Virus genome (UHGV): UHGV-1370921
Source: a virus
Length of the DNA: 48,712 nt
Strand: one strand, 5' to 3'
Of the stretch, positions 9,288 to 40,272 are shown piece after piece (positions within the stretch are counted from its first letter, which is position 1; every line of letters starts with the position of its first letter). Below the pieces are notes generated by a model that saw only the letters and a list, made by a program, of their open reading frames with translations, was not told the origin of the DNA and made no database searches. The position numbers and the translations under genes were made by a program.

Positions 9288-10250
9288 TTGGTCCGCCCGG
9301 TATCATTTAACTCCACAGATACCGGATTCACAGAAATGGCCACACGCATTCCACAAGAAGTAAGAGAGAAACAAATCGCCGAACTTTGCGAGGGTACGGT
9401 TTATTCCTTTGTCAGGTGGGTCGGTAAGTTTAAGGGTGTCAGGTCAAAATTCATATACACATGCGAAAAGCACGGTGAACAAACTGGTAAAGTTGAACAT
9501 TTCATGAACGGTACCAGATGTCCGATGTGCGGCGTAAGTAAACGCATGTTCAGTCAAGAAGAAAGACAGAATCAATTCGAAAAAGAACTGCAAAACACTA
9601 TCTATAGTTTCGCCCAGTGGTCACATTACGACGGCAAGAATACAAGCAGAGTCGTTTTCAACTGTCAAAGACATGGGGAATGGGAGACGTCTGTCAGGTC
9701 ATTTGTTGGAGGTTCTCGATGTCCAAAATGTTCTAGAGAGGCATCATCAGAAAAACAAAGATATGACGTAGAGAAACGAACTGAGCAGATTGTTCAGATG
9801 TGTAATGATTCTGGGTACGCCTTCGAAGGCTGGTGTGAAGGTTACAATAACGCCCGTAGTAATTTCAACTGCAGATGTCCAAAGCATGGTGTATGGAAGG
9901 TTGAATTCTCCGCTTTTAAACACGGTACCCGTTGTCCAAGTTGTGCTAAGACAGGTTTTAATCCCGATAAACCCGCATGGCTATACTGCCTAATTTCAGA
10001 AGACAACTTGTTAAAAGTCGGTATCACCAACGATATTGAAACCAGAATTTCACAGTTAAGAACTTATACTCCGTTCAGTTTTGAAGTTTTGGAGACGTTT
10101 AAAAATGTTGATGGTAACTTAATTCGAGAATTGGAAAGACAAGTTCATTTACAATTTGAGAGTGCGAATCTGAAAGGGTTTCAGGGGTGTACCGAATGGT
10201 TGAAGTGGAACCCAAAGATTCCACTATGGTTCAGATTTTTAAACGGCTAA
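9288..10250 (+). CDS. homing endonuclease, T5orf172/GIY-YIG-like C-terminal domain with three CxxHG...CPxC zinc-ribbon repeats (HEG1)
   Basis: C-terminus [37 protein letters not shown]...[12 protein letters not shown]-terminal repeats of the form CEKHGEQ...GTRCPMCG. Paralogous to 27110-27853, 32891-33658 and 37960-38850. Confidence 0.7.
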
Positions 10251-24371: not shown

Positions 24372-24395
24372 AAAAAAAAAGCCCCGAAGGGCTTA
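24372..24395 (-). terminator. rho-independent terminator after the primase-helicase gene
   Basis: Minus RNA AAGCCCuucgGGGCUU followed by U9. Overlaps the TAA stop of gene 24393-26750. Confidence 0.6.
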
Positions 24396-26750
24396 TTTAG
24401 TTTCTGCAAAGGCCATTGCACTTGTATCACCCTGTGCCGCTGCGTAATGACGTGCTACGTCCGCCGCATTTGTGAGGTTAGCGTGAATGTGTCCAATCTT
24501 GATATAGAGACGTGGTTTACCACCATCAATCATTATTACATTGTTCACACGCCCATCCTTGAGTGCCGGGTGCCAGTCGTAACCCAGTTGACGCATCATG
24601 TCACGACGTTTACCCACTGGTACGGCTCTGTCAGCACGCATCTGGCGTAACAGGTTGTCCAGTGCCTTACTGCTCACCCAACCACCCGCAAAACCCTGTC
24701 GACCCTCGTCGATCGCTTCCATAATTTCCTGTTCGACGCTGCCGAGTGATGCTGTCACAGCTTCGTGTGTACTGCTTGTCTCTGGTGCACGCTGGCAATG
24801 TGTCGCCGGGTTAAATTGTGCGGGGATGTCGTAGTTCTCCAGATAATGTGTTACGGCCGCAAAACCACCACCGCGTTTGAGCCAGTCGTACAGGTTGGGG
24901 AAGTAGTCACCACCCATACCGTCGCGCACTATGTCGATATGCTCCTGCTGCGCCGTGTAGAAAATAGCGAACCGGCGGTCATTAGCCGTCTTGCGCACGG
25001 CGTTCTTGTGGTTACTGTTAAACATGAAGTTAGCACACAGTCGGTGCATTACCTGGTCCTGTTGCATCGCACGTTTAGCGAGGTACTCACCAGTAATCAT
25101 AGGCTTGAGTGTTTCAATCAGCTCAAGTTTCTGCTCAGGAACGTAAATATCCTCCACGCCGATAAATATTTTATCGAACAACCAGGCGTTAAACTTCTCG
25201 CCAATTTCCTGTGCTGGCGGCATGTGGCTGTAGCGTGAACCGACCGCTTCCATTACGCACAGTGTGAACAGTGTTTTACCGTTGCCTTCAACGCCCTGCA
25301 ACAATGGTGCCCACTTGAACTTGGTTCCTTTGTACTGGACACACGCTGCCATGTAGGATAGCAGAATGTCGCGGTCACGCTCGACGGGTAAAAGTTTAGC
25401 CAGATGAGTGAGGAAAGGTGCCACATCGCCCGGGACGCTCGCCACCGTCACCGGTACATATGCGTTGACATGACGCAGACCGTCTTCTTCGATAATGGCA
25501 CCCTGCGGCAGGTCCGGACGGAATGTTGAGCGGTCAACTTTCGGAAACATGATACACTGGTTCTCGGTGAACGCTTCGAAAGCCTTTTTGGTGGTCTTCT
25601 CATTACCGTCATCCAGTGCAAACACATAGCCACCGTACATCGCGTTAAACTGCTCAGACTTCAGCATCTGACCGTTGGGCGTGAGAATACGGTGGCTGTC
25701 TGCCACATATACGCAGCCTTTGAAGTGGTCAACAAGCTGCGAGCCGCCAATAAACTGATACCCACTGCGGATAACCGGTGCACCTGTCTCAATGACCTGA
25801 GCAGGGGTCACCAGTTCAATCGGTGCGCCGACGTTGTAGTAGGTAGTCTGACGTGCGCAAGCGCCCAGAATGGAACGTCGCATGTACGATTTGTGACTGT
25901 CCCATTTAGGACGTGCCAGCGCAGACAGACGCATCAGGCGTTCAATACGTTCACAGTTACCACCGGTCCAGAACGCTAAATGCTGGGCTAATGCGGCGTC
26001 AGCACTTGACCCGTCATACTCGCGGTCCTCATCCGGATACGCATCACTCAGTACCTCGACATTGCGCGTCCACAGGTCTTTAAATGTTGCTTTACCACCG
26101 AATACAGCCGCAACACCACCTTTACTTGAACAGGCTTTTTCGATGAGTTTCGCATCATCTTCAATCGGGCATGAGCCTTCAGCGTGAGTTGTGGTCCATT
26201 CCGTCGCCGTAACTTGCTCGGTCTGCGGGAAATACCGGGCAACCGTGGTGTTGAGCGGCACAGACGCGTTAAACATCATGTCACCCCGTGCACCACTTCC
26301 CAGACAGATAAAACGGTCAGACGTGTACAGTTCAATGTGCAGCGGAATATTTTTACAGCTATGCTCGGGGATGGACGGACTGTAACCAAAAATGTGCAAG
26401 CCTTTACCGCTGTTGCTCACTTCCACATAACAACCGGCAAAAGTGGTGCACAACTCCAGCGCGAGCGGTGACCAGGTATTATCGTCCTGCAGTGCCCCGT
26501 CGATATCCACGCAGAAACGACCGTCACCCGTAAGAATGACTGCAGGACGATATGACTCACCCAGTGCAGAAGCCGCCGCAACCGCCTGAGCGTGAGTCAT
26601 ACGGTCCGCAACGTGCAGACTGACCACATCGCCAGCAGCGTTACACGGCATCTTCTCCGTGCGCCCGGGCTTCTTCTGTGAAGGCACTGTTTTGCAGACG
26701 ATAAAGTGCAGGGAATCAGCCCCCTGCACCGGGGGATTCATATGTGTCAT
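24393..26750 (-). CDS. DNA primase-polymerase / SF3 helicase (PrimPol-D5N-helicase type)
   Basis: N-terminal region with SNSGKGLHIFGY (primase-polymerase-like). Central and C-terminal region with Walker A GVEGNGKTLF. 785 aa. Confidence 0.65.
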   Translation of the reverse strand: MTHMNPPVQGADSLHFIVCKTVPSQKKPGRTEKMPCNAAGDVVSLHVADRMTHAQAVAAASALGESYRPAVILTGDGRFCVDIDGALQDDNTWSPLALELCTTFAGCYVEVSNSGKGLHIFGYSPSIPEHSCKNIPLHIELYTSDRFICLGSGARGDMMFNASVPLNTTVARYFPQTEQVTATEWTTTHAEGSCPIEDDAKLIEKACSSKGGVAAVFGGKATFKDLWTRNVEVLSDAYPDEDREYDGSSADAALAQHLAFWTGGNCERIERLMRLSALARPKWDSHKSYMRRSILGACARQTTYYNVGAPIELVTPAQVIETGAPVIRSGYQFIGGSQLVDHFKGCVYVADSHRILTPNGQMLKSEQFNAMYGGYVFALDDGNEKTTKKAFEAFTENQCIMFPKVDRSTFRPDLPQGAIIEEDGLRHVNAYVPVTVASVPGDVAPFLTHLAKLLPVERDRDILLSYMAACVQYKGTKFKWAPLLQGVEGNGKTLFTLCVMEAVGSRYSHMPPAQEIGEKFNAWLFDKIFIGVEDIYVPEQKLELIETLKPMITGEYLAKRAMQQDQVMHRLCANFMFNSNHKNAVRKTANDRRFAIFYTAQQEHIDIVRDGMGGDYFPNLYDWLKRGGGFAAVTHYLENYDIPAQFNPATHCQRAPETSSTHEAVTASLGSVEQEIMEAIDEGRQGFAGGWVSSKALDNLLRQMRADRAVPVGKRRDMMRQLGYDWHPALKDGRVNNVIMIDGGKPRLYIKIGHIHANLTNAADVARHYAAAQGDTSAMAFAETK

Positions 26751-27084: not shown

Positions 27085-27113
27085 AGTATGGCACAGGTTG
27101 ACGGAGTGGTCAA
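27085..27113 (-). promoter_or_regulatory. sigma70-like promoter TTGACCactcCGTCAa-N-CATACT (minus strand)
   Basis: Variant of the palindromic -35 family. 17-nt spacer. Upstream of the TetR-like gene. Confidence 0.45.
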
Positions 27114-27853
27114 CTACTGAGAAGTCTTAACCAGTATTGAATCTCGGGTGTCCATTTTAACCACTCTGTAGAACCTTTGAACCCAGTTAACTTCGCCGAT
27201 TCAAATTCTTTATGAAACATTTGTTCAAATTCGGAAACTGTTTTTCCGTCTGCCACAATTGTCTCAACTAAGAAAAAATTGAAAGGTGTACTTTTGACCA
27301 ACTCTTTGATTCTTCTTTCCAAACAGTTTGTTATGCCGATTTTGATGAGTCCGCCGTTTTCGGAGCGCAGCGCATAAAGTGTCCCTTCCGCTGTTTTCTG
27401 ATAACCGAAACCCGCACACTTTGGGCACCGTGTCCCACTATAGATGAAATGCCTCACCTTTAAATCCCATTCCAAATCATGAAGTTCGCAGTAGCAAGTA
27501 AATAGACTGTCCGAATTTTCATAAACTCCCTTCCATTTTACAAAACGATATGGGCTATCTTTGCATAGTTCGACAATTTCTCTTCGCCTATCGTCTTCGG
27601 GTGTTCTTAGTCGAATGCTGGCCTTTTCTACCGCACACTTTTTACATCGTTTTCCAGACCATAGGAAACGGTGCACGGTGGTTATCCAATCACCATGTTT
27701 TTCGCAGTTACATTTGAATTTACTTTTGCAATTTTCATAATTATCCACCCAACCGTTGAAACTGTATTGAGTCCCTGCACACAATGAATTTATTTCATCG
27801 ATGACCGTGAATTCACTTCTTGCGAGTTTCATAATGGACCTTCTCCTGACCAA
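27110..27853 (-). CDS. homing endonuclease, T5orf172/GIY-YIG-like with two Zn-ribbon repeats (HEG2)
   Basis: C-terminus LYALRSENGGLIKIGITNCLERRIKELVKSTPFNFFLV...GFKGSTEWLKW. Repeats of the form CEKHGDW...GKRCKKCA. Confidence 0.7.
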   Translation of the reverse strand: MVRRRSIMKLARSEFTVIDEINSLCAGTQYSFNGWVDNYENCKSKFKCNCEKHGDWITTVHRFLWSGKRCKKCAVEKASIRLRTPEDDRRREIVELCKDSPYRFVKWKGVYENSDSLFTCYCELHDLEWDLKVRHFIYSGTRCPKCAGFGYQKTAEGTLYALRSENGGLIKIGITNCLERRIKELVKSTPFNFFLVETIVADGKTVSEFEQMFHKEFESAKLTGFKGSTEWLKWTPEIQYWLRLLSS

Positions 27854-28302: not shown

Positions 28303-28484
28303 TGAGACTTCTCCCGACGTAAAATTCTGCGACTCTGACGCAATAGAACAGTGTACGTAAATTTAGAAATTTCTTCCCAATATGTACCATCGTAATTTTC
28401 AATACCCCAATAATATTTGACATCTTCTTCTTTTACTTCTAAACCACCGTAGTAGTTACCAATATTCCCAATTGGTGTACTCAT
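28299..28484 (-). CDS. small hypothetical protein
   Basis: 61 aa, Tyr/Trp-rich. Confidence 0.3.
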   Translation of the reverse strand: MSTPIGNIGNYYGGLEVKEEDVKYYWGIENYDGTYWEEISKFTYTVLLRQSRRILRREKSQ

Positions 28485-31153
28485 GACCCAATCCTCTCTC
28501 TTAATTTATCCGCATCAGCCGCTTTGAGCGCCTGCGCCTCCAGCCATGACACACCGTATGTCAGATAGAACTTGCGAAATATTTCACTGTCGCTCAGACC
28601 TTCCGCACGGCGATACCCGGCCCACTCCGCTAATTTTAGGTCCAATTTGACGAGCGCGTCAAGACGGTTTTCATGTAATTTAACGTTTCTCTTCACAGCA
28701 TGAGGCGGTAAACCGTGACCAATCATCTTATCTCGGTACTGGTTGACATCCTCGCGTGCAGCAACAACTTCATTGCGCATTTGTGCCAGTACGTCCGGGT
28801 CAAGCTCGTACAAGTCACCGTCCACAAACTCCGGGCCACTACGTTGCGCAGGTTTAGGTACAGGCTCACCGCAGTCAGGACATGCGTCACGGAATCGTTC
28901 GTACACTGCCGCGCAAGCTGTACACACGCGCACCGTCGATGTTTCACTTTTACCTGTGCGACGCTCCCGGCGGTCAAGACTCCACTCACGCGGTGCATCC
29001 GGTAAACCGTGGCGCATGACGTTGCCCACATGGTCAATAATAATCGCGTGGGTTTTACCTGGTAACGGTCTGAGGGCGCGGCCAAACATTTGACTGTACA
29101 TACTGTACGATTCAGTTGGACGACCAAATGAAACAACCTCAATGCCGGGACAATCGAAGCCCTCGGTCAGAATTTCCGAGTTAACTAATTGTAATATCTC
29201 TTTATTTTTAAATTTTCGCACCGCTGCGAATCGTTCAAGGTCGGGAGTATTACAGCTTATTGCCGCCGCCGGGACACCTGCTTTATTATACTGTTCCGCG
29301 ATTTCCTCAGCACTTGCCACATCGACGGTGAATGTCACGCCTGATTTACCACGGGCAATTTTCAGATATTGAGCAACAACATCGCCAGTGATGGTTTTCT
29401 CATCGTGTGCCACCAGTGATGAACCGTTAACGACTTCGCGCATCTGGTTCAGGTTAAAGTCCCCCGTGGAATCGCTGACCTTAATTTGTTCACGTGAGAA
29501 ACTACTTGGAGGTGCAAAAATTTTGTAATCGGTCAGATACCCATCTCGTATGAGTTCCCCCATTGCCACGCCTTCGAACATTGTGTCAAACACGCCATCC
29601 GCGTTACTTCCCAGGCCGTTACCATCCGCACGACACGGCGTAGCTGTAACCCCCAGCCCGCGAGCATTGGGGAACATCTGTACAGCTTTACCCCATTTGT
29701 TATCTTTAAGCACATGGTGTGCCTCATCGATAACCCACAGACGAACAGACGGTAACCAGTTAGCAAGTTGCTCTCCACGCCGGATGATTGTGTCCACGCT
29801 GGCGACCGCGTGTTTACTTCCTGCGTCGTAAAATGTCTTACCCAGTTCATCCATGTGAATCTTCACACAGTTTTTCACGGTTTTATTCGAACCGACAATG
29901 CGGTGATAGATGCCGTTTTTGGCAAGCGTGAGACTCATCTGACTGACGAGTTCCTGGCGGTGTGCAATGGCACATGTCGCACCTTGTTCGGCAGCGATGA
30001 TGGACGAGAAAATTACCGTGTTATGCGTAACAGTGAAATCACCCAACATGAACAATCTGTCACCATCTATTTCAAATCCGTAATAATCGTCCACTTCAAG
30101 TGGTTCAACTTTAATTCCAGTGACTAAAACAGATTTCTTCTGTTTCCTTTCCGCGACATTGTCTTTGTGTCGATTGCGCACGAATGGTAAACCAGAGAAA
30201 TCACCGCTAATGGTCATGCGCCAGTAATCACCAGTAAACCCGTTTTGACAGCTTTTTTTACACGGTTTCATGTAGCACGCGAACCCGAGAGAGCGCGCGA
30301 TAAAAGTTAAATCGTCAGCGAGTTGCTTCACTTTCAGCGTCACTTCGAAATAACCTTTGGATAGATGCCCGTCACTATCTAGTAACCCTGCGAGAACTTG
30401 TTCTCGAACCCGACGAGAAGTGGTTTTATAAACCTCAGGGATATGTTTATTGAGATACAAATTGTATTTTCTTAACGCTGAAAGCATTGACCCCGTGTGC
30501 TTACCATCACGCGGTAAAAAGTAAGTCCACGCTTTGTTATCTGGTCGATTATGATATTTCCTGACCCTGTGTCCCGTCTCACTTGCGTAACTGTGGATAT
30601 ATTCGACTATTTCGTCGTCGGCTGTTGTTATTGCTGCTGCGTTGGAGTTTCCATCACCTAACCACAGACCTAACATGTACGGCGGTAAAATTGGGTCGAA
30701 ATCTTTCTCCTCCCAGTCAACAGGCGCTCTCCACCCTTTGTAAAGATGTTTCCAGTGTTTTCCTTTATTGAGGTAATCACGCACTGAGATGTTTTCTATC
30801 TCACCAGCGCGGTCATCCTTGCCGGTATTGGTGCGCTTTAAACTTAGGATGTGACTCTCATTGACAACATATGGGTCGCCTTTTACCGGTGTCACCCTGT
30901 ACATTTTCTCCCGCCCCCGTGCAAGCGACAACACGCGCCGAGGTTTACTGTCGGGTCCCATTAGCAACTCACCTTGCACAATATCTTCTACGGGTTTAAT
31001 CGAACCGTCATACATTAAAACGGGTGTACCTTTACCTAGACACTTCCCCCCGCCTGTAGCGAGTACCGCCAGGATTTTCCCTTGCGGCTTTTGTTGCCAG
31101 TAGTCATTCAGCTGACTAACCAATGTTTGCTGATATGGTCGTAACTGCATCAT
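28481..31153 (-). CDS. SF2 DEAH-box DNA helicase containing an intein
   Basis: The extein has Walker A LATGGGK|T split by the intein. Also DEAH (VIDEAHH), TAT (motif III) and QxxGRxxR (motif VI). The C-terminus has a CxxC...CxxC zinc ribbon. Confidence 0.8.
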   Translation of the reverse strand: MMQLRPYQQTLVSQLNDYWQQKPQGKILAVLATGGGKCLGKGTPVLMYDGSIKPVEDIVQGELLMGPDSKPRRVLSLARGREKMYRVTPVKGDPYVVNESHILSLKRTNTGKDDRAGEIENISVRDYLNKGKHWKHLYKGWRAPVDWEEKDFDPILPPYMLGLWLGDGNSNAAAITTADDEIVEYIHSYASETGHRVRKYHNRPDNKAWTYFLPRDGKHTGSMLSALRKYNLYLNKHIPEVYKTTSRRVREQVLAGLLDSDGHLSKGYFEVTLKVKQLADDLTFIARSLGFACYMKPCKKSCQNGFTGDYWRMTISGDFSGLPFVRNRHKDNVAERKQKKSVLVTGIKVEPLEVDDYYGFEIDGDRLFMLGDFTVTHNTVIFSSIIAAEQGATCAIAHRQELVSQMSLTLAKNGIYHRIVGSNKTVKNCVKIHMDELGKTFYDAGSKHAVASVDTIIRRGEQLANWLPSVRLWVIDEAHHVLKDNKWGKAVQMFPNARGLGVTATPCRADGNGLGSNADGVFDTMFEGVAMGELIRDGYLTDYKIFAPPSSFSREQIKVSDSTGDFNLNQMREVVNGSSLVAHDEKTITGDVVAQYLKIARGKSGVTFTVDVASAEEIAEQYNKAGVPAAAISCNTPDLERFAAVRKFKNKEILQLVNSEILTEGFDCPGIEVVSFGRPTESYSMYSQMFGRALRPLPGKTHAIIIDHVGNVMRHGLPDAPREWSLDRRERRTGKSETSTVRVCTACAAVYERFRDACPDCGEPVPKPAQRSGPEFVDGDLYELDPDVLAQMRNEVVAAREDVNQYRDKMIGHGLPPHAVKRNVKLHENRLDALVKLDLKLAEWAGYRRAEGLSDSEIFRKFYLTYGVSWLEAQALKAADADKLRERIGS
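30020..31042 (-). mobile_element. LAGLIDADG-type intein (341 aa) inserted in the helicase P-loop
   Basis: Starts with Cys1 (CLGKGTPVLMYDGS). Block B is NESH. Two LAGLIDADG motifs: LGLWLGDGN and LAGLLDSDGH. Ends ...FTVTHN with a +1 Thr that restores GGGKT. Confidence 0.8.
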
Positions 31154-32890: not shown

Positions 32891-33658
32891 ATGCCTGCGA
32901 AACTGACCACCGACAAATTGATTGACAAATTCATAAAAATACACGGTAAGCGGTATGACTATTCTAAGGTCGTGTATGTCAACCAGTGGCAACGGGTGAT
33001 TATAAAATGCAGGCAACACGGTGAATTCACGCAAACGCCTAACCAACATTCAAGAGGGGCGAACTGTCCCTCTTGCTCAATAATCACAGCATCGAGAAGT
33101 AGAACCGGTGAATTTGACAGATGGGTCGCTAAATGTAATGCCGTACATAATTTCAAATATTCTTATAACCACTCTGGAAAATTTAAATCTACCCGAATGG
33201 TGGACATACGTTGCCCTGAACATGGTCGTTTCTTACAGGTAGCATATGACCATGTCAGAGGGGCGGGTTGTCCGATGTGTTCCGATTCCGGATTCAACAG
33301 GTTGGCGTTAGGTTATCTTTATGTGCTGATATCCAATGACCTACGATTTTTCAAAGTGGGTATAACTGGAAACATACCTAAAAGGTTAAGAAGATTGTCG
33401 TACAATACCCCGTTTCACTTTCATCTCATATCTTCTTACCAGTCAACGGGTAAAAGTGTTGAGGAAATGGAAAGGTCAATCCACGCTCGTTTTAAATCTG
33501 CCGGAATGGAAGGTTTCGACGGCGCTACAGAATGGTTGAAAACAAATAACCAAATAGAGGAAGTGCTTCATGAATTATCCGAAAGTAAGTGCATCAAACC
33601 AGTGGATGAGGTGTCACGGGTCGTTCAATGCCCAAAATATATATCCTCCGATCACTAA
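32891..33658 (+). CDS. homing endonuclease, T5orf172/GIY-YIG-like with two Zn-ribbon repeats (HEG3)
   Basis: C-terminus LYVLISNDLRFFKVGITGNIPKRLRRLSYNTPFHFHL...GFDGATEWLK. Repeats of the form CRQHGEF...GANCPSC. Confidence 0.7.
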   Translation: MPAKLTTDKLIDKFIKIHGKRYDYSKVVYVNQWQRVIIKCRQHGEFTQTPNQHSRGANCPSCSIITASRSRTGEFDRWVAKCNAVHNFKYSYNHSGKFKSTRMVDIRCPEHGRFLQVAYDHVRGAGCPMCSDSGFNRLALGYLYVLISNDLRFFKVGITGNIPKRLRRLSYNTPFHFHLISSYQSTGKSVEEMERSIHARFKSAGMEGFDGATEWLKTNNQIEEVLHELSESKCIKPVDEVSRVVQCPKYISSDH

Positions 33659-34691
33659 CGAATTATCTCAATCGAGATTAGAGGGCAGAACATGTCACGA
33701 AATCGTTCAGAAGTTGTTTAAGAATGAACCATTTAGTGACCTCATTGGCTCAGTATCGAAAGAAGGGATTGTGATCACTGATGAATTATTCGATGCCGCC
33801 AGAGAAGTTTTCAATGTGATATGGGGCGAGTGTAACAGATTAAACAAATTACAATCTTTAAAAATTGAACAACCTTGTAATGTTCCCGGATATGATGGAT
33901 GGGTATGCATACCCGACGCATGGTTTTATGATAAAAGCTCCAATACTTTACATGTTTACGACGCTAAATTCGGTCATCGCATTGTTGACCCGTTTGAAAA
34001 CTGGCAGTTGTTAATTGAAGCATTCAGCATTTGCGAACAGTTTCAGTCGCCGCCGGACATTATTGAACTGGTTATTGTACAACCCCGTGGATTCACCAGT
34101 GACGGTACGGTGCGCAAATGGGCGCTCACATACGATGAACTGTGCGTGTACCGGCAGCAGGTGAACGAGACGATGCCCCGCGTACTGGACGCCGTCCCAC
34201 TGTGTATACCAGGACCACACTGTCTCGACTGTAGCGCACGTGCACACTGTGACACGCTGAAGCAACAAAGTTACGCAGGTATTGACTACGTGACATCGCT
34301 GCAGACACACAATCTGTCCGGTCATGCACTGGGTGTTGAACTGCGACTTCTGCAGCGTGCACAGGAGATGATTAAAATGCGTCTCAGTGGTCTGGAGGAA
34401 CAAGCGCTACACGAGATTAAACAGGGACAACACGTGACATTCTACAGCGCTAAAACCACATACGGTCGTAAGCGTTGGAAGAAAGATGTCCCGGTTGACC
34501 AGGTGATTATGATGGGGGATTTACTCGGTCAGAATTTGCGTAAACCGCAGGAACTGGACACGCCTGCACAGTGTGTCAAAAAAGGTATCGACCCGTCCAT
34601 TATTGAGCAGTACGCCGAAACACCTGTCACGGGTGTCAAGCTGGAACAGGTCGACGAACGTGCAATTAAAAATGTATTTTCCCGAAAATAA
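33570..34691 (+). CDS. Cas4/RecB-like PD-(D/E)xK exonuclease with 4-Cys cluster
   Basis: GWVCIPDAWFYD...LHVYDAKFG carries the D/E...D-x-K motifs. C-x5-C-x2-C-x5-C (LCIPGPHCLDCSARAHC) is an Fe-S-type cluster. The 5' end overlaps the HEG3 3' end by 89 nt. Confidence 0.5.
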   Translation: MNYPKVSASNQWMRCHGSFNAQNIYPPITNELSQSRLEGRTCHEIVQKLFKNEPFSDLIGSVSKEGIVITDELFDAAREVFNVIWGECNRLNKLQSLKIEQPCNVPGYDGWVCIPDAWFYDKSSNTLHVYDAKFGHRIVDPFENWQLLIEAFSICEQFQSPPDIIELVIVQPRGFTSDGTVRKWALTYDELCVYRQQVNETMPRVLDAVPLCIPGPHCLDCSARAHCDTLKQQSYAGIDYVTSLQTHNLSGHALGVELRLLQRAQEMIKMRLSGLEEQALHEIKQGQHVTFYSAKTTYGRKRWKKDVPVDQVIMMGDLLGQNLRKPQELDTPAQCVKKGIDPSIIEQYAETPVTGVKLEQVDERAIKNVFSRK

Positions 34692-34777: not shown

Positions 34778-35590
34778 ATGGCTCAATTTACTTTCGTTAC
34801 CCCTGTTGCTCGCCTGATTCACGGTCACCCGCTGAAACAAAATGTACGCACCGATGATGTTACAAAGCAACCGGTTATCGGTAAAGATGGTCAGCCGGTT
34901 AAAGAAATTTATATCGGTATCGCAATTCCTAAAACTGGTGAAACAGACTGGAAAGATACCGAATGGGGTAAACAAATCGTAATGGCGGCACTGGACGCTG
35001 AAAACGGTTATGATGCTGGCACTACTCGCCGCGCTGACTTCTCATGGAAAGTAGTTGATGGTGACAGCGACATCCCGAACAAAGCCGGTCATGCACCGAA
35101 CAGCGACCCGCACAAACGCGGCCACTGGGTCTTGCACCTGAACACCCGCATTCCGTACAACTGTTATCATGTCGGCAAATATAACCCGCTCGATGCGATT
35201 CAGGACGTAAATGCTATTAAACTCGGCGATTACGTTCGTGTGAATATCGTGGCGAAAGGTAATAAGCCGTCCAAAACTCCGGGTGTGTATCTGAACCCGA
35301 ATCTGCTCGAACTGTCACGTGTGGGTGAAGCAATTATTCGTGAAGGTAGCGGTCCGGATGCTGCAAGTGTGTTCGGTGGTAGTGCACCGGCGCAGGTAGC
35401 ACCAACCCCGGCCCCAGCTGCTCCGGCCCCAGCAACACCTCCGCCAGCAACTGACCTGCTGGTAACACCGCCGACGGTTGTTGAAGAGAAGTACAGCTAC
35501 AACGGCACGGTGTATACCAAAGCACAACTGCTCGGTATGCCCGGGTGGAGCGAAGAGTTAATCGCACAACACTGTCAGAAAGTAGCATAA
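34778..35590 (+). CDS. putative ssDNA-binding protein
   Basis: 270 aa: a globular N-terminal domain, then a Pro/Ala-rich linker (PTPAPAAPAPATPPPA) and a C-terminal tail, SSB-like in architecture. Strong promoter, RBS and downstream terminator indicate high expression. Confidence 0.35.
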   Translation: MAQFTFVTPVARLIHGHPLKQNVRTDDVTKQPVIGKDGQPVKEIYIGIAIPKTGETDWKDTEWGKQIVMAALDAENGYDAGTTRRADFSWKVVDGDSDIPNKAGHAPNSDPHKRGHWVLHLNTRIPYNCYHVGKYNPLDAIQDVNAIKLGDYVRVNIVAKGNKPSKTPGVYLNPNLLELSRVGEAIIREGSGPDAASVFGGSAPAQVAPTPAPAAPAPATPPPATDLLVTPPTVVEEKYSYNGTVYTKAQLLGMPGWSEELIAQHCQKVA

Positions 35591-35597
35591 TCACAAC

Positions 35598-35624
35598 GCC
35601 CCGGTGTGAGCCGGGGTAATTTAA
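35598..35624 (+). terminator. putative intrinsic terminator
   Basis: CCCCGGtgtgagCCGGGG followed by TAATTTAA, a weak U-tract. Confidence 0.35.
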
Positions 35625-35636
35625 CAGAGGAAACCG

Positions 35637-35888
35637 ATGATGATGAGATTAACAGCGCGACAAAATGCAATAATTGAAGAAATACAGCGGGATAGAAATG
35701 CCGCCGAAGCTACTTTAAATATAGCATTGAAACACCATCACAATGTGGTTGTTGAACTGGATAAACGAAATTCGGAGTTGTGGTCTGAATTGGCGGAAAT
35801 CCACAATTTGGACTTATCGGAGACGATCTATCAAACGAAAACCATCGATGGGATAGTTCAAATCGTGCCGAAAGAGGAATCCAAATGA
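35637..35888 (+). CDS. hypothetical protein
   Basis: 83-aa helical protein. Confidence 0.4.
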   Translation: MMMRLTARQNAIIEEIQRDRNAAEATLNIALKHHHNVVVELDKRNSELWSELAEIHNLDLSETIYQTKTIDGIVQIVPKEESK

Positions 35889-36033
35889 CCGAACAAGACC
35901 AACGACTGAAACAGTTTGATGAAAAGTTAGCCGAACTGGAAAAGGCTATTAAACAGGTGCAGGAACAACGTCGGGAATATATCAACCAGAATGGGTTAAA
36001 TAAAACAAATGATGTGGAGTATACACGGGGATG
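35885..36033 (+). CDS. small coiled-coil protein (49 aa)
   Basis: ATGA overlap with the upstream gene. MTEQDQRLKQFDEKLAELEKAIKQVQEQRREY... Confidence 0.3.
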
Positions 36034-36210
36034 AATACTCTTGATGCAACGGTAACCAAAGTGGAAGAACCGATGTGGGATGAAGAATATCAAACATACC
36101 GCGTCAAGATTGAATACAACTGCTGGGGAAGTGTTTCAAATACAGAAAGATGGTTCAAAGACCGAAATGAAGCCTACGCTTTAAAAGCAGGTGACACCAT
36201 TATCGTTTAG
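36030..36210 (+). CDS. small hypothetical protein (59 aa)
   Basis: ATGA overlap. Ends at a terminator. Confidence 0.3.
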
Positions 36211-36233
36211 CCCCTTAATTGGGGCTTTTCTTA
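36209..36233 (+). terminator. rho-independent terminator
   Basis: AGCCCCttaattGGGGCT followed by TTTTCTT. Confidence 0.55.
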
Positions 36234-36248
36234 CGGAGAGGAACAGAG

Positions 36249-36440
36249 ATGCAAAACGTATACCTAGTGATTCGTCATCCGCAAAACTACCGTTACTTAG
36301 GTATAGTGCAGATTTCTCGGTTTTATGAAATTGTGAAATCTGTAAAATCGAGAAAAGAAGCAAAAGAATTTTGCGATAACAAAAATAAAAACTCAAATAC
36401 CGAATACCATTACGCGGTAAAAATTCTGAGGGTCGAATAA
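36249..36440 (+). CDS. small basic hypothetical protein
   Basis: 63 aa. RBS GGAGAGGAACAGAG. Immediately precedes the polymerase gene. Confidence 0.35.
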   Translation: MQNVYLVIRHPQNYRYLGIVQISRFYEIVKSVKSRKEAKEFCDNKNKNSNTEYHYAVKILRVE

Positions 36441-37963
36441 TGCACTATTTATCAAAATGCGAGGATGCAACCTGCGGCAAAAATTATCCCGCTGACCTCC
36501 ACAATTGCCCTCACTGTGGGGCCGATTCGGCATTCTCCAGTGTTGCGCCACTGGACCCGCGGGACTGGGGATACGATTTGGAGACATACAAGAACATCTT
36601 CACCGCCTCATTTATTCACGCTGCGACGGGTATGGAGTTAGTCTTTGAAATCAGTGACCGCAAAAACGAGCAGCTGCAATTAATCGAATTTGTGTTCAAC
36701 CTGGGACGTAGTAAGGCCCGTGGGATTGGATTTAATAACCTGGCATTCGACTATCCGGTGCTGCACTACGTGGTCAATGCACCGGGTTGTACACTGGAAC
36801 AGATTTACGCAAAAGCGCAATCACAGATTAAGCCCGAAGGTCAGTGGCCAGAAATTATATGGGACCGCGATCAGATTTTCGAGCAGATTGACCTGTACAA
36901 GATAAACCACTTCGATAATAAAGCCCGACGCACTAGTCTGAAGGCGTTGGAAGTGGGTATGCAGTCCCCTAACGTAAAAGACCTACCATTCCCGGTCGGA
37001 ATGATGCTGGACGATACACAGAAAGACATTCTCATCGCATACAACAAGCACGATGTTCGTGAAACACTTAAATTCTTTGTACGTTCACTCGACAAAATTC
37101 ATTTCCGCGAGGAACTGACAAAGCAATACGGTCGTAACTTTATGAACCACGCCGACACTAAAATCGGCAAAGATATATTTGTTCACGAACTGGAGAAGGC
37201 TGGGGTGGATTGCTCAGGGGTAACTATTCGTGAACGTATTGCGCTCGCAGATTGCATACCTCCTTATATCAAATTCGAACGACCGGAGTTCAATCAAATT
37301 CTGGAACGTATTCGTGGGGTTGTACTCACGAAGAAACAGCAGGACGAATTACTGACCACAAAAGGTGTATTTAGTGATATGACCGTCACAGTCGATGGTG
37401 TCGAATATTCGTTCGGATTGGGAGGTATTCACAGTAGTATTCCAAACTACATTGTGCATTCTACCCAAACACACAATTTACAAAACAAAGACTGTACAAG
37501 CATGTATCCATCTATTAGTATAAAGAATAGATACTATCCGGAACACCTTAGTGAAACTTTTTGCGACGTATATGAACAACTGTTCATTCGTCGTCGTGAT
37601 GCAAAACGAGCGGGAGATAAAACGGTCGATGCAGCATTGAAACTTGCTCTCAATGGAACATTTGGAAACATGGGAAGTAAATTCAGCCCATTTTGTGACC
37701 ATAAGTGCCTCCTGAGTATTACCATTACGGGTCAACTCTGTTTGGCAATGTTGGTGGACCAACTCATAACTCGCGTACCCGGATTAATAGTACCGCAAAC
37801 TAATACTGACGGACTCGTCATTTTTTATGAAAACAAATATGAAAATTTGGTGGAATCCATATGTCAGTCTTGGGAAAAAACAACAATGTTGAATCTGGAG
37901 ACTGACATTGTGAAATCTCTCTATCAGCGAGATGTGAATAATTACATAATGGTAATAGAATGA
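36440..37963 (+). CDS. family-B DNA polymerase, N-terminal fragment (3'-5' exonuclease + palm motifs A/B/C)
   Basis: Exo I WGYDLETY, Exo II GFNNLAFDYPVL, Exo III YNKHDVRETL. Pol motif A DCTSMYPSI, motif B KLALNGTFGNMG, motif C-like QTNTDGLVI. The ORF stops about 50 aa after motif C, with a TGA overlapping the HEG4 ATG. Confidence 0.6.
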   Translation: MHYLSKCEDATCGKNYPADLHNCPHCGADSAFSSVAPLDPRDWGYDLETYKNIFTASFIHAATGMELVFEISDRKNEQLQLIEFVFNLGRSKARGIGFNNLAFDYPVLHYVVNAPGCTLEQIYAKAQSQIKPEGQWPEIIWDRDQIFEQIDLYKINHFDNKARRTSLKALEVGMQSPNVKDLPFPVGMMLDDTQKDILIAYNKHDVRETLKFFVRSLDKIHFREELTKQYGRNFMNHADTKIGKDIFVHELEKAGVDCSGVTIRERIALADCIPPYIKFERPEFNQILERIRGVVLTKKQQDELLTTKGVFSDMTVTVDGVEYSFGLGGIHSSIPNYIVHSTQTHNLQNKDCTSMYPSISIKNRYYPEHLSETFCDVYEQLFIRRRDAKRAGDKTVDAALKLALNGTFGNMGSKFSPFCDHKCLLSITITGQLCLAMLVDQLITRVPGLIVPQTNTDGLVIFYENKYENLVESICQSWEKTTMLNLETDIVKSLYQRDVNNYIMVIE

Positions 37964-38850
37964 GAAGATTGAACACTGAAGAATGGATCGAGAAAGCCCG
38001 CGCAGTACATGGAGATGAGTATGATTATTCGAAGGTTGAGTATCGTACTTCAAAACATAAAGTGACCATCGTTTGTCGATTACATGGGGATTTCCGACAA
38101 GAACCCACATCTCACTGTTCTGGTTCCGGCTGCCCAGTTTGTGGTGGGACAAAAAAATCCAGCACAGAAGAATGGATTGAGAAAGCCCACGCAGTACATG
38201 GAGATAAGTATGATTATTCGAAGGTCGAGTATAAAAAACGACATTCAGAAATAATAATCATTTGTCGAGAGCATGGGGAATTCCTCCAATTAGCCGGTAA
38301 TCATCTGAAAGGTCACGGATGTGCGAAATGCGCGGGAGGTCCCGGAAAAGGACGGCTTCCTCTTTATAACACAGAAGAATGGATTGAGAAAGCCCGCGCA
38401 GTACATGGAGATAAGTATGATTATTCGGAATCTCAATATAAAGGTAATCATCATAAAATAAAGATAATTTGCCCTGTTCATGGTAGTTTTGAAAAATTGG
38501 CTATAGATCACGTATCCGGTGGACAAGGATGTCAAGACTGTTCTAAGAGTGGATTTAAACGTAACCAGATGGCTTCCCTTTATGTACTTGCTTCCGAAGG
38601 TGGGGAATATATGAAGGTCGGTATCAGCAATAATTATAAATATCGCTTGAGGAAATTGAAAAGAAGTACGCCATTTGATTTTCACTTACTCCGAGTTTTA
38701 TCTGGCATAGGTGGAAAAATGGAATTTATCGAAAAATTAACCCATTCTTCTTTCGTTAATGCTGGACTATCTGGTTTTGATGGTTGTACCGAATGGTTGA
38801 AATGGGACAATCGAATTTTAGAAATGCTGGAGGCAACCCGTGAAAATTAA
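37960..38850 (+). CDS. homing endonuclease, T5orf172/GIY-YIG-like with three near-identical tandem Zn-ribbon repeats (HEG4)
   Basis: C-terminus LYVLASEGGEYMKVGISNNYKYRLRKLKRSTPFDFHLL...[11 protein letters not shown]. Three 192-198-bp tandem DNA repeats begin at 37975, 38167 and 38365, each encoding TEEWIEKA(R/H)AVHGD(E/K)YDYS. Confidence 0.7.
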   Translation: MRRLNTEEWIEKARAVHGDEYDYSKVEYRTSKHKVTIVCRLHGDFRQEPTSHCSGSGCPVCGGTKKSSTEEWIEKAHAVHGDKYDYSKVEYKKRHSEIIIICREHGEFLQLAGNHLKGHGCAKCAGGPGKGRLPLYNTEEWIEKARAVHGDKYDYSESQYKGNHHKIKIICPVHGSFEKLAIDHVSGGQGCQDCSKSGFKRNQMASLYVLASEGGEYMKVGISNNYKYRLRKLKRSTPFDFHLLRVLSGIGGKMEFIEKLTHSSFVNAGLSGFDGCTEWLKWDNRILEMLEATREN

Positions 38851-39424
38851 AAGAAAAGGGTGTTACGAGTACAAATACCAGTGGCATCAAGACCCATCGG
38901 CGATGATTGTTGCCCGCGCCGCCGAAGCCGCCCTCGTACACGGTGAGGACATCCGCACGTTCATCACGCAGCACCGTGACCCGTTCGACTTCATGCTGCG
39001 CGCTAAAGTACCGCGTTCTGCACGCCTGGTGATGCGCTGGCCGGAGTGGGGCGCTGAACAGGAGATGCAGAATACCACACGTGTGTTTATCTCGCGTAAT
39101 GGTGGGTCACTGGTCAAGCTGTTACCACCAACCGGCACACCCGGTACATGGAAGCGTAAGAACGGTGTCAAAGACGATGTGTATAATGCTGTAATACGTG
39201 AGATTACTGGTCAACCGGGAGACCTCGACAGCATCGGTACACCGTGGGACGAGCGCATCCACACGAAGAGTCGCAGCAAGCATGATGCAGTGCGTGAAAC
39301 CGGGATGTATGTAGGATGGAAGGTGACAGAGTGTGCCGACGCTAAGGACTTCGACTGGGGCAGTCTGGACTATGAGTATTATGTGAAAGAAGCGGAAAAG
39401 TTAGTTCTACCGTTATTGGGGTAA
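38840..39424 (+). CDS. possible C-terminal (thumb) fragment of the split family-B DNA polymerase
   Basis: GTG start with GGAGG RBS 6 nt upstream. Begins MKIKRKGCYEYKY. Contains DSIGTPWDERIHTKSR, shared with ORF 31968-32885. Assignment as a polymerase remnant is positional. Confidence 0.3.
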   Translation: MKIKRKGCYEYKYQWHQDPSAMIVARAAEAALVHGEDIRTFITQHRDPFDFMLRAKVPRSARLVMRWPEWGAEQEMQNTTRVFISRNGGSLVKLLPPTGTPGTWKRKNGVKDDVYNAVIREITGQPGDLDSIGTPWDERIHTKSRSKHDAVRETGMYVGWKVTECADAKDFDWGSLDYEYYVKEAEKLVLPLLG

Positions 39425-39431
39425 CAAACTA

Positions 39432-39451
39432 CCGGCGCGTCACTGCGCCGG
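39432..39451. terminator. hairpin between convergent genes (weak terminator)
   Basis: CCGGCGCgtcactGCGCCGG. Overlaps the stop of the minus-strand gene 39440-39751. Confidence 0.3.
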
Positions 39452-39751
39452 ATTCGATACACGCCGACGCAATTCATCAAGTTCAAGTCGTACTCGTTCA
39501 GCCTCCAGACGAGCAATAATTTCCTTCTCCTTACGCTCGGCGGACTCATTACGAATTCGCCGTATGTGACCGTAAATCATAATGATGGTCAACAGAATAC
39601 CACATAAGGTAGCAAAGATACCGATGGTTTCCGGAGTGATACCGTACTTAGTCATCAACCCCGTTATCGTCGTCCCGCTTGCTACCAGTGTTCCTGCTTG
39701 TGTGTTTCCAGTGAAGCTCATAGTATTTTCTCGCTTTGATGTACCACTCAA
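39440..39751 (-). CDS. pinholin-like lysis protein
   Basis: A weak Gly/Thr-rich TMD1 (AGTLVASGTTITGLM), a strong TMD2 (IGIFATLCGILLTIIMIYGHI) and a charged C-terminal tail. Adjacent to a SAR endolysin. Confidence 0.4.
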   Translation of the reverse strand: MSGTSKRENTMSFTGNTQAGTLVASGTTITGLMTKYGITPETIGIFATLCGILLTIIMIYGHIRRIRNESAERKEKEIIARLEAERVRLELDELRRRVSNPAQ

Positions 39752-40158
39752 CGACCTGCACCAGCATAAGGATGATGACCAGAGTCGTCGATATGAACCG
39801 CAATACCTCCAGCATCGACACTATCCTTTTTCAGTACCGTGAGGATTGCCGCGCAGTATAACATCACGAACATTGCCACATAGACATCAAGTGGTTGATA
39901 GAAAAACCACAGAAGCCAACCTATCAGATTAATCGACATAGAAACAATGCTAATAAGCATCATATCGAGAGACTTTCGGGATGTTCCGAACCGGTAGAGA
40001 ATGCCGGCTACGATGAAATCACAAAATGCGGCGAGGAAAAAATAAATAGAACCGTCCAGATTACCACATAACTCATGGAAAATAGTCGTCGTCACCACGA
40101 AGAGAAACGAGGCTCTCCGGGGTCTGACGATTACTGAGGTAATCAGGAAGGTATACAT
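39748..40158 (-). CDS. multi-pass membrane protein (holin/antiholin candidate)
   Basis: 136 aa with 3-4 predicted TM helices. Lies divergently to the endolysin. Confidence 0.35.
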   Translation of the reverse strand: MYTFLITSVIVRPRRASFLFVVTTTIFHELCGNLDGSIYFFLAAFCDFIVAGILYRFGTSRKSLDMMLISIVSMSINLIGWLLWFFYQPLDVYVAMFVMLYCAAILTVLKKDSVDAGGIAVHIDDSGHHPYAGAGR

Positions 40159-40272
40159 TGTTTATTTGGTCCGACGTTTTACTTCGGCACCAGTTTTACC
40201 TGCTTTAGTCTTGTACATTTTATCGCCCTTGTATGTTAGGATTAAGCCTAATTGTACAGCAGGTGTAACAAA

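Follow-up and report, generated by a model that had tools for sequence, protein, structure and literature searches.

In Aeromonas phage 25, the family B DNA polymerase gene 43 is split into 43A and 43B, and the two products co-purify and are active, according to the account in PMC2988022. In phage Aeh1, nrdA is split by mobE, a homing endonuclease gene (HEG), and the split NrdA is active (PMC3045599; Friedrich 2007; Crona 2011). A paper on T5orf172 HEGs and "HEG islands" in ICP1, T5-like phages, and other phages names nrdA as the sole known gene whose split yields two functional peptides (Barth, Dunham & Seed 2023, PMC10448857). Here we analyze a family B DNA polymerase (PolB) gene in the viral genome UHGV-1370921, a stretch of 48,712 nucleotides (nt) that we will call the window. 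We propose that a free-standing HEG has split this gene, the phage's single replicative polymerase gene, into two pieces, polN and polC, which are translated separately and make up one enzyme. We put the probability of this at roughly 85%.

The window belongs to the Jedunavirus group of Klebsiella phage JD001 (megablast; 71 phage records matched), and the polymerase gene is surrounded by a replication module with a single-stranded DNA-binding protein (SSB), a nuclease, a helicase, and a primase. The parts of the split locus are (aa, amino acids):

36440-37963, + strand: polN, the N-terminal piece of the family B DNA polymerase; ATG start, 507 aa; holds the putative zinc ribbon, the 3'-5' exonuclease, the palm, the fingers, and the first strand of the palm/thumb hairpin (...RDVNNYIMV), followed by the insertion-derived IE
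37960-38850, + strand: free-standing HEG; ATG start, 296 aa
38829-38842, + strand: start signals of polC, within the 3' end of the HEG; Shine-Dalgarno (SD) sequence GGAGG at 38829-38833, a 6-nt spacer, and GTG at 38840-38842
38840-39424, + strand: polC, the C-terminal piece; GTG start, 194 aa; holds the second hairpin strand (KIKRKGCYEY) and the thumb domain

An earlier reading of the window, made from the sequence alone, had described these three open reading frames (ORFs), with the TGA of polN overlapping the ATG of the HEG and a GTG start for polC behind a GGAGG ribosome-binding site. The ORF list agrees on all three (the first overlap is ATGA), and the GGAGG is in place. The overlap between the HEG and polC had been given as 10 nt and is actually 11 nt (38840-38850). 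In the ORF list, polN and polC share a reading frame and the HEG is in a different one; 876 nt separate polN from polC. We scanned 35500-40200 for promoters and terminators, and between the three ORFs none exceeded the shuffled expectation. In GenBank, the jedunavirus pieces are labeled as "DNA polymerase" twice, with "endonuclease" in between.

PolN and polC match successive parts of one protein. Within phrog_1252 ("DNA polymerase", 663 positions), polN covers positions 23-507 (E = 1.7e-164) and polC covers positions 512-650 (E = 5e-34). As the sequence-only reading had suggested, we looked at HEG-free relatives: Escherichia phage ZCEC13 has one uninterrupted 704-aa gene at the same place, and polN and polC are contiguous in it. 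The gene is also intact in KpV52, KsaM-C1, AAM22, and many metagenomic relatives, and polC is 98% identical, over the aligned region, to the C-terminus of the intact homolog P0001. The HEG is missing from ZCEC13 and from the other intact alleles, and its presence among jedunaviruses is sporadic.

These comparisons locate the break to the codon. In the intact protein the sequence is ...QRDVNNYIQV-GTDG-KIKRKGAYEY..., whereas in the window it is ...QRDVNNYIMVIE and a stop, followed by (M)KIKRKGCYEY.... The net change is that four residues (GTDG) were lost and two (IE) were gained; at the DNA level, about 12 nt (GGT ACG GAC GG) are replaced by the cassette. In the AlphaFold2 model of the intact enzyme, GTDG is the turn (residues 506-509) of a hairpin whose strands are at 500-505 and 510-513, and the polN portion ends on a β-strand of the palm, with no thumb of its own. 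The hairpin aligns with KKKYAVIDEEGKITTRG of archaeal PolB, and the first ~40 residues of polC align with archaeal PolB residues ~600-634, which in the KOD/Tgo structures we take to be the end of the palm and the start of the thumb. Based on the alignments and the model, the break is in the turn of a β-hairpin, right after the equivalent of the KxY motif and at the border between palm and thumb.

The proposal of the sequence-only reading that polC supplies the missing thumb fits with these results: alignment to polymerase profiles places polC after the KxY-equivalent hairpin, where the thumb of family B polymerases lies, and the model gives no complete thumb inside polN. The same reading put a possible KxY-type region at the start of polC (KIKRKGCYEYKY). 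That placement does not hold, as the equivalent is VNNY at the end of polN, with KKKYAVIDEEGKITTRG aligned with VNNYIAVKEKGKVKRKG.

The model of polC by itself also points to a partner. Residues 17-194 are predicted confidently and residues 1-15 are not (predicted local distance difference test, or pLDDT, of 42-52), while the counterpart of these 15 residues is confident in the model of the intact enzyme. This suggests that the strand becomes ordered only against polN.

Several lines of evidence suggest that the two-piece enzyme is functional. Between split alleles, dN/dS (the ratio of nonsynonymous to synonymous substitution rates) is 0.03-0.13 for polN and 0.04-0.09 for polC, in a set that leaves out the JD001 polC comparison, and dS is 0.25-0.74. 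Judging from these ratios, both halves are under strong purifying selection as separate genes, over a long divergence. The two-piece gene is found in 29 GenBank records, or ~21 distinct cultured Klebsiella phages (the intact gene is in ~30 records). All of the catalytic motifs are intact in the split loci, and no second polymerase is annotated in KpV79. PolC also has its own translation signals. A start codon (ATG or GTG) immediately precedes KIKRKG in 24 of 25 split loci, with JD001 starting one codon earlier, and most split loci have a purine-rich SD-like run upstream. The intact alleles have a glycine codon (GGN) at the position of this start codon. The locus thus has the hallmarks of "genes in pieces": collinear intact relatives, a free-standing HEG that has a start and a stop of its own, and halves that are under selection and have their own translation signals.

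Could polN be a working polymerase on its own, with polC dispensable or re-purposed? Every exonuclease and polymerase catalytic motif is within polN. However, selection among split alleles constrains polC as strongly as polN (dN/dS of 0.04-0.09), and it is still nearly identical (98% in the aligned region) to the C-terminus of the intact P0001. Furthermore, the break cuts through a hairpin: the edge strand of polN is left unpaired, and the 15-residue N-terminus of polC is ordered only in the intact model. The thumb of family B polymerases holds the primer-template duplex, so a thumbless polymerase would be expected to bind DNA poorly. Overall, we consider it unlikely that polN acts alone.

A few points do weigh against a polymerase made of two pieces by a HEG. 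In the literature on Jedunavirus, we found no proteomic or biochemical data. The Pfam scores of the HEG barely exceed the gathering thresholds (MUG113, 23.9 bits with a cutoff of 22.3; T5orf172, 21.0 bits with a cutoff of 20). In Klebsiella phage RCIP0033 (L054, 1821-2973), the window's HEG is present at 98% amino acid identity in two ORFs of 161 and 232 aa, broken by the duplication of a Zn-ribbon repeat and by a frameshift; polN and polC are intact. This HEG may be decaying, or the break may be a sequencing error. Because of this break, some carriers may have an inactive HEG. Also, a gene in ICP1 that was apparently interrupted by a HEG, the tape-measure gene, proved to be spliced (PMC10448857), and Rfam is unable to exclude a self-splicing RNA of an unrecognized type.

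The ICP1 case would favor a self-splicing group I-like intron that contains the HEG, with the spliced mRNA encoding one full-length polymerase. It would also fit that polN and polC are in one reading frame, and HEG-bearing introns are well known in phage polymerase genes (references in PMC2988022; PMC3428280). On the other hand, searching the window locus against Rfam (E ≤ 10) gave no match except for two sub-threshold chance matches to snoRNAs, and seven other split loci gave no match (E ≤ 1). The P3-P8 catalytic RNA core that defines group I introns is not seen: there is neither an Rfam intron match nor any non-coding sequence in the insert. The HEG's coding sequence takes up the entire insert and extends into the ORFs on both sides, which leaves no space for an intron core. 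Three unrelated HEG genes share the same boundaries, and therefore there is no shared RNA to fold as an intron. PolC has its own start codon in every split locus, mostly with an SD-like run, and no remaining sequence could encode the lost GTDG turn. We therefore think that an intron is very unlikely.

We give just as little credence to the idea that polN and polC are a dead pseudogene pair, with a host polymerase replicating the phage. Apart from the unusual NTDG motif and the fact of the interruption, we have nothing specific in its favor. In contrast, both halves show strong purifying selection with dS up to ~0.7; the motifs are all intact, and NTDG is just as invariant in the intact alleles; the split is found in ~21 cultured lytic phages; and the gene lies within the phage replication module, beside the genes for SSB, nuclease, helicase, and primase.

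A split intein that joins the halves after translation would have the gene order of the "fractured genes" of Dassa et al. 2009 (PMC2677866), but we consider it extremely improbable, as it needs roughly 100 + 35 extra residues and there is no room for them (polN has just 2 residues past its conserved end, and polC has only the initiator before its conserved start), the HEG is out of frame, the polymerase frame contains stops, and neither half has a Hint or intein match in Pfam, whereas an intein in the window's helicase is readily detected.

Lastly, we rejected stop-codon readthrough and ribosomal bypass: the frame of polN has ~20 stop codons across the insert, over a gap of 876 nt, which excludes readthrough. 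The sequence-only reading had ranked trans-splicing or readthrough as less likely than two subunits, and this ranking stands, given the ~20 stops and the lack of support for splicing (no Rfam match and no non-coding sequence).

Returning to the two-piece enzyme, the polymerase belongs to family B, in a divergent clade that lies outside of the curated models. The best Pfam match of polN is to DNA_pol_B_exo2 (E = 0.0015; 18.7 bits, under the gathering cutoff of 24), and NCBIfam models of Pol II score 20-27 bits, compared to cutoffs of at least 570. Because the curated models are only sub-threshold, we based the assignment on a profile search of PDB sequences and on a fold search. With a profile of 38 intact homologs, the best PDB match was Sulfolobus PolB1 (E = 3e-5), followed by KOD-type PolB, E. 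coli Pol II, and pol alpha, and the aligned regions include the KxY strand as well as motifs A, B, and C. The profile search of PDB sequences found no solved structure for a close relative. In the fold search, the overall fold (exonuclease, palm, fingers, and thumb) agreed with solved PolB structures. The motifs in polN, with invariance assessed across the 38 homologs, are:

36458-36520, + strand: putative zinc ribbon in the Cys-rich N-terminus, CEDATCGKNYPADLHNCPHCG (polN aa 7-27); C23 and C26 invariant, C7 nearly so
36575-36589, + strand: Exo I, DLETY (aa 46-50)
36734-36763, + strand: Exo II, NNLAFDYPVL (aa 99-108)
37040-37066, + strand: Exo III, YNKHDVRET (aa 201-209)
37490-37513, + strand: motif A, DCTSMYPS (aa 351-358); D351, S354, Y356, and P357 invariant; aligned with DFRSLYPS of archaeal PolB
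37640-37666, + strand: motif B, KLALNGTFG (aa 401-409); K401, N405, and G409 invariant; aligned with KILANSYYG of archaeal PolB
37802-37813, + strand: motif C, NTDG (aa 455-458); all four residues invariant; aligned with DTDG/DTDS of PolBs in PDB
37928-37960, + strand: KxY-equivalent strand RDVNNYIMV plus the IE tail, the last codons of polN; placed by profile alignment and the AlphaFold2 model

The exonuclease motifs were recognized from sequence, and they match the family B patterns for Exo I (DxE), Exo II (Nx2-3[FY]D), and Exo III (Yx3D); D46, E48, N99, D104, Y201, and D205 are invariant. Motifs A (DxxSLYPS) and B (Kx3NSxYG) are matched as well, in alignments with archaeal PolB, Pol II, and pol alpha. 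All of these motifs, including the C-like NTDG, are where the sequence-only reading had put them, and polN stops 49 residues beyond motif C (it had estimated ~50).

Two motifs depart from the family patterns. Motif C of family B is [YF]xDTDS, with two Asp; NTDG keeps the second Asp and has Asn instead of the first. At the KxY position, the aligned residues are V-N-[NS]-Y, with VNNY opposite the KKKY of archaeal PolB in the profile alignment: Tyr is unchanged, and Asn stands where Lys is expected. Both variants are invariant, as NTDG and N-[NS]-Y were found in 50/50 loci, split or intact, with NTDG persisting down to ~31% identity. Since NTDG is invariant in intact and split loci alike, it is a trait of the clade and not a sign of decay. 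The sequence-only reading was correct that Asn replaces the first Asp, but its hint that this anomaly is peculiar to the gene does not hold up. In the polymerases of RB69 and phi29, the metals are coordinated by the Asp of motif A and by the second of the two Asp in DTD. It would be wrong to interpret the Asn in motif C as inactivation.

This is a large clade: the intact enzyme gave matches to more than 6000 protein clusters and, at E < 1e-20, to 836 phage records, among them Nonagvirus, crAss-like phages, Rheinheimera "Barba" phages, and phages of Vibrio and Enterococcus. The more distant relatives lack the Cys-rich N-terminal extension, and their matches begin at around residue 40. In some distant relatives (loci L041-L049), tblastn shows an in-frame gap of 220-310 nt between query residues 314 and 316, just before motif A; going by the sequence, this is probably a domain that is inserted relative to the jedunavirus enzyme. 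In Acinetobacter phage vB_AbaS_D0, Pseudomonas phage Pavpe01, Escherichia phage SLUR75, and other Nonagvirus-type phages, the match ends at around residue 560-575, and these Nonagvirus-type genes are annotated as "DNA polymerase subunit" or "elongation subunit 1". These lineages may have a different C-terminal arrangement or another split.

The insert in the window is predicted to be a single free-standing homing endonuclease gene of the T5orf172/MUG113 type. Its domains are:

Starts near 37960, 38160, and 38365, + strand: three tandem treble-clef repeats, Zn-ribbon DNA-binding, with CxxC at aa 58, 121, and 191 (EEWIEKA...CxxC at aa 7-61, 70-124, and 139-194)
From 38578, + strand: C-terminal T5orf172/MUG113 nuclease domain of the GIY-YIG superfamily (aa 207-287; from Pfam)

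The nuclease domain has the core LYVL...KVGIS...R...E(W), with GIY-YIG-like residues, and the protein matches phrog_681 ("endonuclease") with E = 6.6e-67. DUF4379 and DUF723 are sub-threshold matches. The paralogs of this HEG, and other HEGs at the same site, have higher Pfam scores than it does.

The window also contains other selfish elements. T5orf172/MUG113 paralogs of the HEG are at 9288-10250 (+), 27110-27853 (-), and 32891-33658 (+), and two of these have CapR Zn-finger repeats. One paralog is directly upstream of a primase-polymerase gene (24393-26750, -), and another overlaps the start of a DUF2800 nuclease gene (33570-34691). The helicase (ResIII/Helicase_C, 890 aa; 28481-31153, -) contains, close to its N-terminus, an intein that includes a LAGLIDADG homing endonuclease (Hom_end_hint at aa 38-107, E = 1e-18; Hom_end at aa 238-297, E = 3e-10). 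This intein is sporadic, as the helicase of KpV79 is only 557 aa. Counting the HEG at the polymerase site, the T5orf172 paralogs, and the helicase intein, the replication module has at least 5 selfish elements.

The same site has been occupied by several kinds of HEGs. Within Jedunavirus, there are three T5orf172 HEGs that are just 34-41% identical to each other, an HNH_3 HEG of ~181 aa, and, in KpTRp1, a canonical GIY-YIG HEG. Polymerases that are ~35-50% identical have the same break, with HNH_3 HEGs (L040, L045, L047, and L052) or a GIY-YIG HEG (L053). In Yersinia phage fEV-1 (L051, 3436-4011), polN and polC are separated by a 191-aa ORF with no Pfam match. This ORF is 43% identical to the GIY-YIG HEG of KpTRp1 from residue 34 of the KpTRp1 protein onwards, and the N-terminal region with the GIY motif is gone. 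It looks like a degenerate GIY-YIG HEG, with the split persisting.

To ask how common the split is, we searched with polC and found 101 clusters, mostly of stand-alone proteins at 35-95% identity. We aligned 35 of these proteins, and almost every one starts with M-K-[IV]-K-R-K-G. An exhaustive profile search gave 1716 matches; the best 149 representatives comprised 61 full-length proteins, 36 stand-alone proteins that begin at the split point, and fragments. So, within the best 149 of 1716, a separate thumb that starts exactly with M-KIKRKG accounts for 36 of the 97 classifiable clusters (at 50% identity), or about one third. Apparent split points at ~400 (motif B) and ~425 were artifacts of contig ends or gene calling at a conserved internal Met (two contigs inspected).

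Besides the sporadic presence of the HEG, the flanking DNA shows signs of co-conversion. Roughly 700 nt on the 5' side of the window's HEG are 44-82% identical to HEG-less jedunavirus alleles (below 80% except for one 90-nt window), while the remainder of the polymerase gene is mostly 80-99% identical to them. The GIY-YIG allele of KpTRp1 is in a different, ZCEC13-like background and is divergent only within about ±90 nt of the junction. These patterns in the flanks fit with HEG-driven gene conversion. They also fit with at least two separate origins of the split; the alternative is a transfer of the cassette with a very short conversion tract. A neighbor-joining tree with parsimony gave at least 22 changes between split and intact, which is a rough count, as recombination near the HEG breaks the assumption of a tree and the two samples were drawn differently.

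More broadly, the polymerase gene is strongly mosaic among jedunaviruses (for instance, polN of the window versus L001, L012, and L013, or KpV52 versus KpV79). KpV79 and KpV52 are classified under the same species, and the split allele of KpV79 is 84% identical to P0001, whereas the intact allele of KpV52 is only 65% identical. This sequence contrast suggests that large tracts, or even the gene as a whole, have been exchanged.

We propose that polN and polC are made separately and would then associate non-covalently to form an active polymerase. The N-terminal strand of polC, which is predicted to be disordered alone, probably pairs with the last strand of polN and thereby rebuilds the hairpin, and the normal interface of palm and thumb would aid the assembly. 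Translation of polC is probably coupled to that of the HEG via the 11-nt overlap. In a co-infection, the HEG would cleave polymerase alleles that lack it, and repair would then copy in the HEG together with flanking polymerase DNA and the newly introduced stop and start signals. Because the cassette supplies the translation signals of polC, an imprecise loss of the HEG would be lethal, and this dependence of polC would stabilize the HEG. We see about an even chance of a more general conclusion, that the turn of the palm/thumb hairpin is a fission-tolerant hotspot of the NTDG clade, with three swapping families of HEGs that create or maintain the split, start signals that are borne by the HEG, and β-strand complementation without tails.

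If the two-piece interpretation is correct, then these phages have a natural and apparently common replicative DNA polymerase whose thumb is supplied in trans. Such an enzyme could help in studying how a polymerase tolerates being split between palm and thumb, and it could guide the design of split polymerases. Unrelated homing endonucleases appear to have converged on one conserved site in an essential gene, dragging flanking polymerase sequence along, which would make the polymerase genes of therapeutic Klebsiella phages mosaic. As for annotation, the pairs of jedunavirus ORFs that are labeled "DNA polymerase" or "hypothetical" would be subunits of one enzyme.

How does this locus compare to known systems? 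The closest precedents are the split gene 43 of Aeromonas phage 25 and the split nrdA of Aeh1. The sequence-only reading had drawn the parallel with the split gene 43 of some T4-like phages, which is documented in PMC2988022. As described there, the replicative PolB of Aeromonas phages 25 and 44RR is encoded by two cistrons, as it is here, and in phage 25 a free-standing HEG, seg43(25), lies between the cistrons, as it does here (Petrov, Ratnayaka & Karam 2010, as summarized in PMC2988022). Aeh1 nrdA resembles the jedunavirus polymerase in having a free-standing HEG within a conserved region of an essential gene and in yielding two polypeptides, and the NrdA pieces come together again as an active enzyme, with no RNA or protein splicing involved (PMC2988022, PMC3045599). 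Unlike the polymerase, NrdA is a different kind of enzyme, and insertion-derived tails on both of its fragments are essential for assembly (PMC3045599). The tails of the jedunavirus polymerase are only IE and the initiator Met, so its assembly must rely on the native hairpin and the domain interface.

In other systems, the HEG is similar but the outcome is different. The T5orf172 HEGs of PMC10448857 have the architecture of the window's HEG, with repeated Zn-finger modules (CapR/DUF723/DUF4379) and a C-terminal T5orf172/MUG113 nuclease. They too are found beside essential replication genes, with classes of HEGs at cognate positions, domain swaps, and changes in repeat number. Those HEGs are mainly between genes or in introns or inteins, and a term search of that paper found no description of the jedunavirus polymerase split. 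The fractured genes of PMC2677866 have the same order of half, HEG, and half, but the jedunavirus break has no intein halves. Group I introns with HEGs in phage polymerase genes (the I-HmuI family of SPO1/SP82, I-BasI of Bastille, and I-PfoP3I of Pf-WMP3) also place the HEG at a highly conserved site in the polymerase; in contrast, no intron RNA was found at the jedunavirus site, and the polymerase would stay in two pieces at the protein level. We found no paper on a split polymerase in Jedunavirus, and the genome papers for FZ14 and IME346 do not mention it. HEG-driven fission of phage PolB and NrdA was already described in 2007-2010, and our results do not overturn the current understanding. 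What may be new is the breadth: one site, conserved to the codon, that is used by three families of HEGs and is split in about one third of the sampled lineages of the NTDG clade of family B polymerases.

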